Sequence record: PQ850595.1
Direction: 5' to 3' (one strand)
Source of the DNA: Escherichia phage AnnaIndermaur_Bas104
DNA length: 40,334 nucleotides
The notes beneath the pieces are model-generated. The model saw nothing but the letters and a program-made list of their open reading frames with translations, was not told the origin of the DNA and ran no database searches. Below are positions 2,787 to 20,999 of this stretch, piece by piece. Position 1 is the first letter of the stretch. Each line of letters opens with the position of its first letter. The position numbers were made by a program, and so were the translations under genes.

Positions 2787-2865
2787 TTTATGCAGTAGGA
2801 TTGCATAGGGATTCATTAGAGACCACGGAAGGTCGATTTTTAAGTTATTGAATATAAAGAGAAAT

Positions 2866-2888
2866 CAATTCGACTCACTATAGGGAGA
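2866..2888 (+). promoter_or_regulatory. T7 RNAP promoter phiOR (slightly degenerate -17..-12)
   Basis: caattCGACTCACTATAGGGAGA; position upstream of 19.5 as in T7. Confidence 0.7.
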
Positions 2889-3042
2889 GGAGGGACGAAA
2901 GGTTACTATATAGATACTGAATGAATACTTATAGAGTGCATAAAGTATGCATAGTAGTGTACCTAAAGTGACCTCTAAGAATGGTGATTATATTATATTA
3001 ATATCACCTTAACTTAAAGACCAACATAAAGGGAGGAGACTA

Positions 3043-9777: not shown

Positions 9778-10050
9778 ATGGGACGTCTGTATAGTGGTAA
9801 TCTGGCAGCATACAAAGACGCTATTGAGCGCATCAAGGAGGACTACGATGTCAACGTAGTCATTGAGACTTTCCGATATATGAGCTATGCGCGGATGCGT
9901 TGGGTAGCTGGAGAGACTATTCGAGTGGTATTGCGGAATGGCGTAGAGGTAACATCCAAGAGGTTCGAGCACGATGATGAAGATGTGCGCTGTAATGCAC
10001 AGACCGAATGGTTACGCAAGGTGCATAGTGATTTGAAGCACTGGAAGTAA
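9778..10050 (+). CDS. 1.2: gp1.2 homolog (dGTPase inhibitor in T7), 90 aa, central region diverged
   Basis: MGRLYSGNLAA... and C-terminal ...DLKHWK match T7 gp1.2; ORF-track start at 9691 is an in-frame upstream extension through gene 1.1. Confidence 0.8.
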   Translation: MGRLYSGNLAAYKDAIERIKEDYDVNVVIETFRYMSYARMRWVAGETIRVVLRNGVEVTSKRFEHDDEDVRCNAQTEWLRKVHSDLKHWK

Positions 10051-10070
10051 TACGACTCAGTATAGGGATA
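10048..10070 (+). promoter_or_regulatory. T7 RNAP promoter phi1.3
   Basis: TAATACGACTCAGTATAGGGATA (same C-to-G variant as T7 phi1.3). Confidence 0.85.
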
Positions 10071-10075
10071 ACCCA

Positions 10076-10489
10076 ATGACCGACATAGAACGATTCAACA
10101 GTAAGACCGAACCATGTGGTGACTGTTTGCGTTGGACTGGTAGTATCCAGCCCAATGGTTACGGACGGTTCCGCCTGTATGGTAAGCCTGTATATGCCCA
10201 TAGGGCTTCGTACATTCTGTTCAACGGTGAGTTGAATAAGAGTGATGTAGTCCTACACTCCTGTGACAATAGGTGGTGTGTAAATCCTGCACATCTAACC
10301 AAGGGCACACAGGCAGATAACCTTAGAGACATGGCTATCAAAGGACGTGGTGCTAGAAAGATAACTAATGAGCAGGTCGATATGATACGGACGGACCCTC
10401 GCTCCGGCAGGGAGCTAGCAAGGGCACTTAATGTCGCTGCTTCAACAATACACTACATACGAAATGGCAAACTGAGGAAATACATATGA
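10076..10489 (+). CDS. free-standing HNH homing endonuclease, 137 aa
   Basis: HNH motif region YAHRASY...LHSCDNRWCVNPAHL; inserted between phi1.3 and the ligase gene where T7 has only the R1.3 leader; ATGA overlap with ligase start. Confidence 0.8.
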   Translation: MTDIERFNSKTEPCGDCLRWTGSIQPNGYGRFRLYGKPVYAHRASYILFNGELNKSDVVLHSCDNRWCVNPAHLTKGTQADNLRDMAIKGRGARKITNEQVDMIRTDPRSGRELARALNVAASTIHYIRNGKLRKYI

Positions 10490-11520
10490 TTATTAACTTT
10501 AAGACTTCACCATACAAGGCAGTATCTTTCGTAGAGTCTGCCATTAAGAAAGCTCTGGATAACGCTGGGTATCTTATTGCAGACATTAAGTACGATGGTG
10601 TGCGTGGTAACATCTGCGTAGACAATACTGCTAACTGCTGCTGGCTCTCTCGTGTGTCTAAAACGATTCCGGCGCTGGAGCACTTAAACGGGTTTGATGT
10701 TCGCTGGAAGCGTCTGCTGAGCGATGACCGTTGTTTCTACAAAGATGGCTTTATGCTCGATGGTGAACTCATGGTCAAGGGCGTAGACTTTAACACAGGG
10801 TCTGGCCTACTGCGCACCAAGTGGCTCAACAAGAATAACTTTGAGTTCGACGTTGGCGGTGTACCTCCGCTCAAGGGGTCCAAGGTTGAGTTCGCGTTGG
10901 ACACCAAACGTCTGAGTGTCAAACTGTACGCTATCCTCCCTCTGCACATCGTGGAGTCTGGTGAAGACTATGATGTCATGACGTTGCTCATGCAGGAACA
11001 CGTTAAGAACATGCTGCCTCTGCTACAGGAATACTTCCCTGAAATCGAATGGCAAGCGGCTGAATCTTACGAGGTCTACGATATGGTAGAACTACAGCAA
11101 CTGTATGAGAAGAAGCGTGAAGAAGGCCATGAGGGTCTCATTGTGAAAGACCCGATGTGCATCTACAAGCGAGGCAAGAAGTCAGGCTGGTGGAAAATGA
11201 AGCCAGAGAATGAGGCTGATGGTATCATTCAGGGTCTGATATGGGGGACCGAAGGTCTTGCTAATGAGGGCAAAGTGATTGGCTTTGAGGTGCTTCTTGA
11301 GAGTGGTCGTGTAGTTAACGCCACAAACATCTCTCGCGCCTTAATGGATGAGTTTACAGCGGCATGTGATACTGACACATACCACCTTGCCGGTATAAAC
11401 CCGTACCAAGGCTGGGCCTGCCAGATTAGCTACATGGAGGAAACACCTGACGGCTCCCTGCGTCACCCATCGTTCGTATGTTTCCGTGGCACCGAGGATA
11501 ACCCTCAAGAGAAAATGTAA
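10486..11520 (+). CDS. 1.3: ATP-dependent DNA ligase (T7 gp1.3 homolog), 344 aa
   Basis: adenylation motif KYDGVRG; near-identical to T7 ligase but ~15 aa shorter. Confidence 0.93.
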   Translation: MIINFKTSPYKAVSFVESAIKKALDNAGYLIADIKYDGVRGNICVDNTANCCWLSRVSKTIPALEHLNGFDVRWKRLLSDDRCFYKDGFMLDGELMVKGVDFNTGSGLLRTKWLNKNNFEFDVGGVPPLKGSKVEFALDTKRLSVKLYAILPLHIVESGEDYDVMTLLMQEHVKNMLPLLQEYFPEIEWQAAESYEVYDMVELQQLYEKKREEGHEGLIVKDPMCIYKRGKKSGWWKMKPENEADGIIQGLIWGTEGLANEGKVIGFEVLLESGRVVNATNISRALMDEFTAACDTDTYHLAGINPYQGWACQISYMEETPDGSLRHPSFVCFRGTEDNPQEKM

Positions 11521-11527
11521 TCACACT

Positions 11528-11556
11528 GGCTCACCTTCGGGTGGGCCTTTCTGCGT
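11528..11556 (+). terminator. early terminator TE (rho-independent, host RNAP)
   Basis: GGCTCACCTTCGGGTGGGCC hairpin followed by TTTCTGCGTTTA; identical in sequence and position to T7 TE. Confidence 0.85.
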
Positions 11557-11573
11557 TTATAAGGAGACACTTT

Positions 11574-11729
11574 ATGTTTAAGAAGGTAGGTAAATTCCTT
11601 GTGGCTTGGGCAGCTATCCTTACGTTTGCATATCTTCTGGCGGTATACCCTCAAGCAGCACTTGTAGTAGTGGGCGCTTGTTGTCTAGCGGCAGCGTGTG
11701 CTTGCGTGTGGTACTTCGTCAATTGCTAA
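11574..11729 (+). CDS. 1.4: gp1.4 homolog, 51 aa hydrophobic protein
   Basis: MFKKVGKFLVAWAAILTFAYLLAVYPQAALVVVGACCLAAACACVWYFVNC; matches T7 gp1.4. Confidence 0.75.
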   Translation: MFKKVGKFLVAWAAILTFAYLLAVYPQAALVVVGACCLAAACACVWYFVNC

Positions 11730-17967: not shown

Positions 17968-19926
17968 ATGATCGTTTCTGACATCGAAGCTAACGCCCTC
18001 TTAGAGAGCGTCACTAAGTTCCACTGCGGGGTTATCTACGACTACTCCACCGCTGAGTACGTAAGCTACCGTCCGAGTGACTTCGGTGCGTATCTGGATG
18101 CGCTGGAAGCCGAGGTTGCACGAGGCGGTCTTATTGTGTTCCACAACGGTCACAAGTATGACGTGCCTGCATTGACCAAACTGGCAAAGTTGCAATTGAA
18201 CCGAGAGTTCCACCTTCCTCGTGAGAACTGTATTGACACCCTTGTGCTGTCACGCTTGATTCACTCTAACCTGAAAGACACCGATATGGGTCTCCTGCGT
18301 TCCGGTAAGTTGCCGGGGAACCGCTTTGGGTCTCACGCTTTGGAGGCGTGGGGTTATCGCTTAGGCGAAATGAAGGGTGAATACAAGGACGACTTTAAGC
18401 GTATGCTTGAAGAGCAAGGTGAAGAATACATTGATGGAATGGAGTGGTGGAACTTCAACGAAGAGATGATGGCCTATAACGTTCAGGACGTTGTGGTCAC
18501 TAAAACTCTCCTTGAGAAGCTACTCTCTGACAAACATTACTTCCCTCCTGAGATTGACTTTACGGACGTAGGATACACTACGTTCTGGTCAGAATCCCTT
18601 GAGGCCGTTGACATTGAGCATCGTGCTGCATGGCTACTCGCTAAGCAAGAGCGCAATGGGTTCCCGTTTGACACGAAAGCAATCGAAGAATTGTACGTAG
18701 AGTTAGCTGCTCGCCGCTCTGAGTTGCTCCGTAAATTGACCGAAACGTTCGGCTCGTGGTATCAGCCTAAAGGTGGCACCGAAATGTTCTGCCATCCGAG
18801 GACTGGTAAGCCATTGCCTAAATACCCTCGCATTAAGATACCTAAAGTTGGTGGTATCTTTAAGAAGCCTAAGAACAAGGCACAGCGAGAAGGCCGTGAG
18901 CCTTGCGAACTGGACACCCGCGAGTACGTTGCTGGTGCTCCTTATACGCCAGTTGAGCACGTAGTGTTTAACCCATCGTCTCGTGACCACATTCAGAAGA
19001 AACTCCAAGAGGCTGGGTGGGTCCCCACGAAGTACACCGATAATGGTGCGCCTGTGGTGGACGATGAGGTACTCGAAGGAGTACGTGTAGATGACCCTGA
19101 GAAGCAAGCTGCCATCGACCTCATTAAAGAGTACCTGATGATTCAGAAGCGAATCGGACAGTCTGCTGAGGGAGACAAGGCGTGGCTTCGTTACGTTGCT
19201 GAGGACGGTAAGATTCATGGTTCTGTTAATCCCAACGGCGCTGTTACTGGGCGCGCTACTCACGCTTTCCCTAACCTCGCACAAGTACCCGGTGTCCGTT
19301 CTCCTTATGGTGATAAGTGCCGCGCTGCTTTTGGCGCTGAACATCACCTAGACGGTATTACTGGTAAGCCTTGGGTTCAGGCTGGCATCGACGCATCCGG
19401 TCTGGAGCTACGCTGCTTGGCCCACTTCATGGCTCGCTTTGATAACGGTGAGTACGCTAGAGAGATTCTTCATGGCGACATCCACACTAAAAACCAGCTA
19501 GCTGCTGAATTACCTACCCGTGATAACGCAAAGACGTTCATCTATGGGTTCCTCTATGGTGCTGGCGATGAGAAGATTGGGCAGATTGTTGGTGCTGGTA
19601 AAGAGCGCGGTAAGGAACTCAAGAAGAAATTCCTTGAGAACACCCCCGCGATTGCAGCACTCCGCGAGTCTATCCAACAGACGCTTGTCGAGTCCTCTCA
19701 GTGGGTAGCTGGTGAGCAACAAGTCAAGTGGAAACGCCGCTGGATTAAAGGTCTGGATGGTCGTAAGGTACACGTTCGTAGTCCTCACGCTGCCTTGAAT
19801 ACACTACTGCAATCTGCTGGTGCTCTTATCTGCAAACTGTGGATTATCAAGACCGAAGAGATGCTAGTAGAGAAAGGCTTGAAGCATGGCTGGGATGGGG
19901 ACTTTGCGTACATGGCATGGGTGCAT
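17968..19926 (+). CDS. 5: DNA polymerase (T7 gp5 homolog), exon 1 (codons 1-653)
   Basis: near-identical to T7 gp5 up to ...FAYMAWVH; reading frame then diverges (KLSHCAH-stop) and T7 homology resumes at 20528. Confidence 0.9.
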
Positions 19927-20527
19927 AAACTATCTCATTGTGCACATTAAATCTGGTGAACTCGGTGAAACCCTTCTGGGGCAATACCGAGCCAAGCCAT
20001 AGGGAGGATATATGAGAGGCAAGAAGTTAATCCTTGCGGCCACAGAGAGTGGTTGTATCATCCCTACGTCGCACAAACTTAATGCTGATGGTTATTTCCG
20101 AAAGAAGACGAACGGTGTCCTAGAGATGTATCACAGGACAGTCTGGAAGGAACACTACGGAGATATACCAGAAGGGTATGAAGTAGACCACAAGTGTAGG
20201 AACAGGGCGTGCTGTAACGTAGAGCACCTCCGGTTACTAGAAGGTTCTGAGCATACAGTCAAGACAAACATGGAACGCTACGCTGACCGTAAAGAGTCCG
20301 CGAAGGAATACTGGTTGGAGACTGGATGTACAGGAACACACTTAGGTGAGAAGTTTGGTGTAACGTTCTCTGCCGCTTGTAAGTGGATTAGAGAGTGGAA
20401 GGCGTAGAGACTATCCGAAAGGAGTAGGGCCGAGGGTGAGATTCCCTCGTTACCCGAAGCGCCAGACAGTCAACTCAAAGGCTGATGATATAGTCCGACA
20501 CTCCTAGTAATAGGAGAATACAGAAAG
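19927..20527 (+). mobile_element. group I self-splicing intron (601 nt) in DNA polymerase gene, with HNH homing-endonuclease ORF
   Basis: exon 1 ends in U; exon 3' GUGCAU can pair with intron GUGCAC (19940-19945) to form P1 with U-G at the splice site; intron ends in G; exon1+exon2 = 704 codons, exactly T7 gp5 length. Confidence 0.8.
20012..20407 (+). CDS. intron-encoded HNH homing endonuclease, 131 aa
   Basis: HNH motif EVDHKCRNRACCNVEHL; GGGAGG RBS; lies wholly inside the intron. Confidence 0.85.
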   Translation: MRGKKLILAATESGCIIPTSHKLNADGYFRKKTNGVLEMYHRTVWKEHYGDIPEGYEVDHKCRNRACCNVEHLRLLEGSEHTVKTNMERYADRKESAKEYWLETGCTGTHLGEKFGVTFSAACKWIREWKA

Positions 20528-20683
20528 GATGAGATTCAAGTAGGTTGCCGTACCGAAGAGATTGCTCAGGTGGTCATTGAGACCGCACAAGAAGCAATGC
20601 GCTGGGTTGGAGACCACTGGAACTTCCGGTGTCTTCTGGATACCGAAGGTAAGATTGGTCCGAATTGGGCAGTATGTCACTAA
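20528..20683 (+). CDS. 5: DNA polymerase (gp5), exon 2 (51 codons)
   Basis: DEIQVGCRTEEIAQVVIETAQEAMRWVGDHWNFRCLLDTEGKIGPNWAVCH matches the T7 gp5 C-terminus. Confidence 0.85.
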   Translation, partial: DEIQVGCRTEEIAQVVIETAQEAMRWVGDHWNFRCLLDTEGKIGPNWAVCH

Positions 20684-20702
20684 TTCTATAGGAGAAATTA
20701 TT

Positions 20703-20999
20703 ATGGCTATCACTAAGAAATTTAAAGTGTCCTTTGATGTTACCCTTAAGCTGGACAGCGAGACCGAAGAACTGATGCTGGAAAAGATTCTGGACTTAGC
20801 CCATCGTGCTGGTGCTGGTGAGGAGATTGCTCCTATGGACCGAGAGTTGCTAGTTCAGGCCCTGACACATGGTCCAGACGGTGCTGCCACATTTGCTGTA
20901 CGACAAGGTATCCGCAATGCTGTCAAGGAGATGTTCGAAGAGTCTGGTGATAAATCACTGTTCAAAGTATCTCCTGCAACTGTACGGGAGGTGTTCTGA
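20703..20999 (+). CDS. 5.5: gp5.5 homolog (H-NS-binding protein in T7), 98 aa
   Basis: MAITKKFKVSFDVT...KSLFKVSPATVREVF matches T7 gp5.5; AGGAG RBS; gene 5.3 absent. Confidence 0.85.
   Translation: MAITKKFKVSFDVTLKLDSETEELMLEKILDLAHRAGAGEEIAPMDRELLVQALTHGPDGAATFAVRQGIRNAVKEMFEESGDKSLFKVSPATVREVF

Follow-up and report, generated by a model that had tools for sequence, protein, structure and literature searches.

The DNA polymerase intron of T7-like phages is a textbook case for the view that introns and homing endonucleases evolved separately toward the same conserved target and then united. Guanosine-dependent self-splicing was reportedly demonstrated by Bonocora and Shub in 2004 for the introns of the coliphages ΦI and W31, and the same authors are said to have found in 2009 that the enzyme encoded by a free-standing gene, gene 5.3, cleaves the same polymerase site as the one the intron occupies. 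His881-Asp882 of E. coli Pol I is the VHDE of motif C, the same motif as at the junction described here. A published table gives the ΦI and W31 polymerase introns as 601 nt long, with a 131-aa HNH ORF, I-TslI (PMC1995217). The passages of a second source that deal with these introns place them in subgroup IA2, with the ORF in P6a and the insertion at site 881 by the numbering of E. coli Pol I, and refer to a first description, from 2004, with self-splicing in its title (PMC3428280).

We analysed the genome of Escherichia phage AnnaIndermaur_Bas104 (Bas104; PQ850595.1) over a stretch of 40,334 nt, referred to below as the window. It is a T7-like coliphage genome whose gene order is that of Escherichia phage JeanTinguely (Bas64) throughout. 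A sequence-only reading had proposed that a group I intron with an HNH homing-endonuclease ORF interrupts the DNA polymerase gene, gene 5. We put the probability of this reading at roughly 96%: the insert is most probably a group I intron with an HNH ORF, which would be removed by self-splicing and be mobile by homing. All features of the locus given below lie on the plus strand.

The interruption of gene 5

Exon 1 of gene 5 (17968..19926, 653 codons), delimited from the list of open reading frames and the spliced translation, ends in ...FAYMAWVH and matches Pfam DNA_pol_A with E=4e-36; its final base, U19926, is the 5' splice site. Exon 2 (20528..20683), comprising 51 codons and the stop codon at 20681-20683, starts with DEIQVGCRTEE and so opens with the catalytic Asp654-Glu655 of motif C. 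When 17968-19926 and 20528-20683 were joined, the result was 653 + 51 = 704 codons, the length of T7 gp5 as had been counted in the sequence-only reading, and residues 1-704 of the spliced product aligned on residues 1-704 of T7 gp5 (PDB 6n7w) with zero gaps. That reading had the T7 gp5 homology stopping at 19926 and resuming in frame at 20528. Both positions stand, and the resumption is in frame only after removal of the 601 nt: this length is no multiple of three, so that until then the two exons lie in different genomic frames, and the unspliced frame of exon 1 continues for seven extra codons (KLSHCAH) before it meets TAA at 19948-19950. The insert (19927..20527) begins with AAACUAUC and ends with ...ACAGAAAG, the terminal (omega) G at 20527 being its last base, and the predicted spliced junction is ...GGGUGCAU|GAUGAGAUU. 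A 601-nt sequence that follows a U and ends in G was part of the earlier observation, as were a P1 helix with a U-G pair and a 131-aa HNH protein; every element of it is confirmed by the results given here and in the two sections that follow.

The insertion site, ...AWVH|DEIQ, corresponds to T7 His653|Asp654, i.e. site 881, and both the length of 601 nt and the 131-aa ORF in P6a are those of the ΦI/W31 element. Whether the site and the endonuclease family were those of the described T7-like polymerase introns had been left undecided; by site 881, 601 nt and 131 aa they are the same. The Bas104 and ΦI/W31 introns are thus alike in host gene, site, intron and ORF length, IA2 subgroup, location of the ORF in P6a and HNH family. 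The ΦI and W31 records (AY769989, AY769990) are partial; phage 13a (EU734174) served as the nearest comparable sequence. The introns of 13a and JeanTinguely (MZ501081) share the junction of Bas104 and are 99.2-99.3% identical to its intron over 601 nt; five bases differ in 13a, all in the ORF, and four in JeanTinguely, and outside the ORF interior the intron RNAs of 13a and Bas104 do not differ. Over the 1.2 kb around the intron, identity is 99.5% with JeanTinguely and 97.4% with 13a. The matching features, together with 13a as a proxy (99.2%), suggest that the Bas104 intron is the same element as that of ΦI/W31. The gene 5 intron has been known since 2004, and close relatives already carry its annotation: in the records of both 13a and JeanTinguely, gene 5 is a two-piece joined CDS with the endonuclease inside.

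The intronless T7 site reads GGGTACAT|GATGAAATC, compared with GGGTGCAT|GATGAGATT in Bas104. The differences, at -4, +6 and +9, are synonymous, and all three fall inside the P1 or P10 pairings described below.

Ribozyme structure and covariation

In a local scan, the group I intron model of Rfam (RF00028) gave a full-length match, from model position 1 to 253 and window position 19917 to 20517, with 36.8 bits and E=1e-7; in a scan of the whole window, the group I model was the sole match at E<=0.1 (E=5.6e-6). A covariance-model search was the check that the sequence-only reading had proposed, and its outcome bears the proposal out, though at a score below the RF00028 gathering cut-off of 50 bits, so that the intron is seen only in E-value mode. 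An Rfam search of the whole window at gathering threshold accordingly gave zero matches. The ORF-bearing homologous introns scored 31-45 bits against the same model, as compared to 58.9 bits for an ORF-less relative in Salmonella phage Arash, and in the Bas104 match the aligner had about 400 nt of ORF to skip. That the ORF-less relative passes fits the idea that a 396-nt ORF insert costs the ORF-bearing copies score. The shortfall of the Bas104 intron fits this ORF insert and a missing P2, not a defective core.

The intron's secondary structure was drawn by hand and its pairings were verified by script. In the P1 hairpin (19921..19945), exon GUGCAU and intron AA (19921-28) pair with the internal guide sequence UUGUGCAC (19938-19945). 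GTGCAC at 19940-19945 lies opposite exon GUGCAU, as had been noticed, with U19926 facing G19940, and P1 runs two A-U pairs into the intron beyond this exon-guide helix. The P1 loop (AUCUCA, 19932-37) pairs in turn with exon 2 (UGAGAU, 20530-35) to form a P10 of 6 bp. The U·G pair in P1, the terminal G and P10 are the splice signals of a group I intron. The 5' half of the ribozyme core (19952..19999) contains the whole of P4 (19961-67 with 19985-91) and P5 (19971-73 with 19979-81) and the 5' strands of P3 (19952-58 with 20460-66), P6 (19992-93 with 20401-02) and P6a (19997-99 with 20396-98). The 3' half of the ribozyme (20396..20527) extends from P6a' and P6' to the omega G and includes P7 (20409-13 with 20491-95), P7.1 (20414-23), P7.2 (20427-55), P8 (20467-84) and P9 (20501-16, with a GUAA loop). 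All helices of the conserved P3-P9 core could be placed, including the P3/P7 pseudoknot; P5 (3 bp), P6 (2 bp) and P6a (3 bp) are all short. A P2 helix was looked for in the intron and none was found, because only six bases (19946-19951) separate P1 from P3. When the ORF was deleted, the intron had a folding z-score of -2.5, and its minimum-energy structure recovered P4-P5, P7.1, P7.2, P8 and P9. Introns of subgroup IA2 have two additional helices between P7 and P3', namely P7.1 and P7.2, which are connected by G-U-A (PMC3428280). In Bas104 the GUA at 20424-26 joins P7.1 to P7.2, and the same layout is present in 11/11 homologues; together with the Rfam match and the covariation described below, this makes the insert a group I intron of subgroup IA2.

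Covariation was assessed in a MAFFT alignment of 11 sequences from which the ORF interiors had been removed, and which was not fitted to the drawn structure. The same-site homologues were those of Bas102, K1F, ECBP2, PAS59, Vibrio phage Vp_R1, Edwardsiella phage DT115P1 and three IMG/VR contigs; Arash contributed a related ribozyme from another polymerase site. A copy in Citrobacter phage NS1 was excluded because of a mutated P7' and of non-polymerase sequence beyond its 3' end. Across the 11 introns, standard pairs occupied 91.3% of the pair cells, versus 33-46% when the 3' partners were slid by 1-3 columns. Both sides had changed in 27 of the 64 pairs, a number equalled by none of 500 shuffles. 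P3 was 95.9% paired, with both-side changes in five of its seven pairs; P4, P5 and P6 were 100% paired across the homologues, and so were P7 and P9, here with both-side changes present. The terminal G does not vary among the aligned sequences. At the 5' splice site, 10/10 homologues have the U·G pair, and both-side changes occur in three of the eight pairs of P1. P1 co-varies with the exon: ECBP2 has the exon sequence ACAUGCAU versus GGGUGCAU and the guide sequence GUGCAUGU versus GUGCACAU. P10 co-varies in Bas102, where a C->U change in the loop goes with a synonymous GAG->GAA change in the exon. The weak helices in the MAFFT alignment were P6a, the inner part of P7.2 and P8 (55-79% paired). 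We read this as misalignment of hairpins of differing length; folded individually, P7.1-GUA-P7.2, P8 and P9 form in 11/11 homologues despite their sequence differences. With its P3-P9 core drawable and compensatory changes across 11 homologues, the interruption of gene 5 by a group I intron, as first proposed, is upheld.

From this anatomy and the published work on the same element, splicing in Bas104 would proceed as follows. The intron would fold within the gene 5 transcript, with U19926 presented by P1 in its pair with G19940, and a free guanosine bound in P7 would attack after U19926. Exon 2 would be aligned by P10, and the freed 3'-OH of U19926 would then attack after G20527, so that CAU|GAU would be joined and the 704-aa polymerase restored.

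The same results bear on the possibility that gene 5 is split and never spliced, a free-standing homing-endonuclease cassette having separated it into parts that encode polypeptides of 653 and 51 aa, which would assemble after translation. Genes split by homing endonucleases are generally known to exist in other phages, and separate polymerase CDSs stand at the homologous loci in the records of ECBP2, PAS59, DT115P1 and K1F (gp5.4). We nevertheless consider such an arrangement very improbable in Bas104. The start of exon 2 has neither an in-frame start codon nor a ribosome-binding site, the ATG at 20529 being out of frame and followed by a stop after 4 codons, and the break would fall between His653 and the catalytic Asp654. 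In addition, the endonuclease gene is flanked by a conserved, co-varying group I core, for which a plain cassette would have no need.

The HNH endonuclease

The 131-aa ORF predicted in the sequence-only reading is an HNH homing-endonuclease gene of the I-TslI type (20012..20407), situated in the terminal loop of P6a. A Shine-Dalgarno sequence, GGGAGG (20002..20007), could be read 4 nt upstream of its start codon; for translation, the enzyme would have a ribosome-binding site of its own in the P6a loop. No T7 promoter for the endonuclease was found inside the intron, the nearest promoter-like sites being at 10048 and 22377. The gene is interlocked with the ribozyme, since its last codons, UGG AAG GCG UAG, double as the 3' strands of P6a (20396-98) and P6 (20401-02). 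Pfam HNH_3 matches the product with E=1.5e-17 and 63.4 bits, versus a cut-off of 24.8, and a large protein collection yielded 152 homologues of similar length; no identical entry to the exact sequence was found among 15 billion proteins. The residues that are invariant in 31 family members (C15, H41, H60, C62, H72, H81 and N86) are all kept in Bas104, and at N64, C67, C68 and N69 the conservation among these members is 90% or more. The HNH_3 domain is intact, its metal-binding and catalytic residues being conserved. An AF2 model (mean pLDDT 88, pTM 0.57) has a nuclease half rich in beta structure and, after it, four helices; among PDB structures the best match, a weak one, is I-HmuI (1u3e; E=5.5e-3, TM 0.36, 20% identity), and a sequence search of the PDB returned a chance match to a chaperonin alone.

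The Bas104 enzyme has R74 and M87 where both 13a and JeanTinguely have Q and R, at positions that are variable in the wider family. These two changes, which are found in neither relative, could be taken as a sign that the intron has decayed, either into a relic that no longer splices or into one with a dead endonuclease, which would leave the polymerase gene non-functional or the element immobile. Homing endonuclease genes are generally known to decay commonly after fixation, and the P7' of the NS1 copy is mutated. We regard decay in Bas104 as slightly less probable even than an unspliced split gene: outside the ORF interior, the RNA is the same as in 13a, a phage that has been isolated (propagated), all helices are intact, and the ORF is full-length with every invariant family residue present. 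Moreover, the polymerase is essential, and a non-splicing copy could presumably not persist in a propagating phage. An intein, or a ribosomal bypass of the 601 nt, has a negligible probability and was rejected: the continuity of the flanking coding sequence once the insert is removed is all that speaks for either, whereas the insert length is not a multiple of three and the exon frames differ, which also excludes simple read-through, the polymerase frame meets the TAA at 19948-50 seven codons into the insert, Pfam finds no Hint domain in the ORF (HNH_3 is the sole family above cut-off, plus a sub-threshold zf-His_Me_endon), and 601 nt is far beyond the ~50-nt translational bypass generally known from T4 gene 60. 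The preferred reading is thus a group I intron with an intact HNH gene, and its sequence, taken together with the published ΦI/W31 work, leads us to infer that both splicing and endonuclease activity operate in Bas104.

If the homing steps known from the literature on ΦI also apply to Bas104, the HNH enzyme would, in mixed infections, cut or nick gene 5 alleles that lack the intron, close to the insertion site. Recombinational repair would then copy the intron, with short flanking exon stretches, into the recipient.

Mobility and comparison with related elements

Copies of the intron with at least 78% identity were found by megablast in 39 phage records. In BUCT788 and the Kayfunavirus PDP351P3, the introns are 96.5-96.7% identical to that of Bas104 and the flanking exons just 56-73%; in Bas102, the exons are 94-97% identical and the intron 86.9%. 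This disagreement between intron and exon similarity indicates that the intron moves between phages, the identities being decoupled in the way that homing would predict. The lineage was found in the Studiervirinae (Teseptimavirus, Kayfunavirus), the Gordonclarkvirinae, the Grimontviridae (Vp_R1), an Edwardsiella autographivirus and uncultured IMG/VR contigs. On balance we favour the view that a single lineage of intron plus endonuclease moves between distant phage groups, always into the His|Asp of motif C in family A polymerases, and that this breadth and the very recent Teseptimavirus-to-Kayfunavirus transfers may be undocumented.

A copy of the intron in K1F is mentioned in the literature (PMC4925675). 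The introns of K1F and other Kayfunavirus members, ECBP2, PAS59 (Gordonclarkvirinae), Vp_R1 and DT115P1 share with Bas104 the His|Asp site, the ribozyme architecture and the endonuclease family, at 65-80% nucleotide identity; the endonucleases of K1F, SU7 and PE006 are 58-77% identical to that of Bas104 in amino acids. The same-site introns differ from that of Bas104 in the lengths of P5, P7.2 and P8, Vp_R1 has a longer 3' tail, and a P2 hairpin, which Bas104 lacks, is present in the introns of DT115P1 and of one IMG/VR contig (L047). In the records of ECBP2, Vp_R1, PAS59, DT115P1 and BUCT788, the polymerase is given as a truncated CDS and not as a join, and some of these five records add a separate small CDS named 'DNA polymerase' or 'hypothetical'. 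The annotation of gene 5 in Bas104 must be a joined CDS (17968..19926, 20528..20683); reading the gene as a truncated polymerase with an orphan 51-aa ORF is an error, one found in many related public records.

Other copies depart further from this pattern. The NS1 copy (MN715150.2; locus L005, 396-1003) has the mutated P7' sequence GATATACTCC and, after the 3' splice position, sequence unrelated to polymerase; it lies near the start of the record and may be degenerate, rearranged or an assembly artefact. The Arash relative of the Bas104 ribozyme (OQ632216; locus L010, 1060-1330) is a 271-nt group I intron without an ORF, the removal of which joins ...GAKSVTF|GLLYG, motif B of a family A polymerase whose halves are annotated separately in the record as 'DNA polymerase nu' and 'DNA polymerase theta'. 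Its P6a loop keeps an AGGAGG and an ATG, which may be what remains of an ORF since lost. A scan of IMG/VR with TGAAYTCGGTGAA...AATACCGAGC, which covers P4 and the start of P6, returned at least 120 viral contigs, most of them with other phage group I introns, many without an ORF. Among the matches listed, only L029, L047, L053 and L125 belong to the Bas104 intron family; the P4/P6 motif marks phage IA2 introns in general and not this family.

Bas104 and JeanTinguely, whose genomes are otherwise 95-99% identical, differ in their sets of homing endonucleases: the two other homing-endonuclease genes of JeanTinguely, located after the large terminase gene and after the ligase gene, are absent or replaced in Bas104 (2792-3020 and 11359-11724). 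Elsewhere in the window, a free-standing HNH_3-like ORF of 137 aa (10076-10489, plus strand; motif …HSCDNRWCVNPAHL…) lies between gene 1.2, which ends at 10050, and the ligase gene, which starts at 10486. A T7-type promoter (10048-10070) immediately precedes it, the 408-nt stretch in which it lies is absent from JeanTinguely, and it is weakly paralogous to the intron endonuclease (tblastn E=0.003).

In T3 and phiYeO3-12, gene 5.3 encodes a free-standing HNH enzyme just downstream of an intronless gene 5. The T3 product is homologous to the intron endonuclease (47% identity over residues 6-94, E=2e-30); with 101 aa, it is without the C-terminal ~35 residues, which are helical in the model of the Bas104 enzyme and whose codons overlap P6a' and P6'. 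The cut made by free-standing endonucleases of this kind is at the sequence where the intron inserts, an arrangement termed 'collaborative homing' (PMC10448857). In the window, gene 5 stops at 20683 and gene 5.5 starts at 20703, with no gene 5.3 at 20684-20702 between them; T7 carries an unrelated 118-aa gene 5.3 at the position where T3 and phiYeO3-12 have the free-standing homologue. In the three genomes compared (the Bas104 window, T7 and T3), intron-borne and free-standing copies never occur together. Free-standing homologues with 36-45% identity are also present in two members of the Zobellviridae, Klebsiella phage Klyazma (locus L011, 601-1020) and Pseudomonas phage PSA11 (locus L012, 610-1017), in both immediately downstream of the polymerase gene and overlapping its end, an arrangement like that of T3 gene 5.3.

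The polymerase introns of SPO1, SP82 and Bastille, with the enzymes I-HmuI, I-HmuII and I-BasI, are likewise group I introns with an HNH ORF in a family A polymerase gene. They differ from the Bas104 intron in their site (674 versus 881; PMC3428280), in their greater length (853-915 nt), in their longer enzymes (174-188 aa) and in their Gram-positive hosts. Set against these systems, only two points are mildly new, namely the breadth of the intron family across phage groups and the unannotated ORF-less relative in Arash. The movement of a single lineage across such distant groups, if true, would extend the picture drawn by Bonocora and Shub without changing it. The Bas104 intron raises no new question; it is a further copy of a well-studied mobile element.
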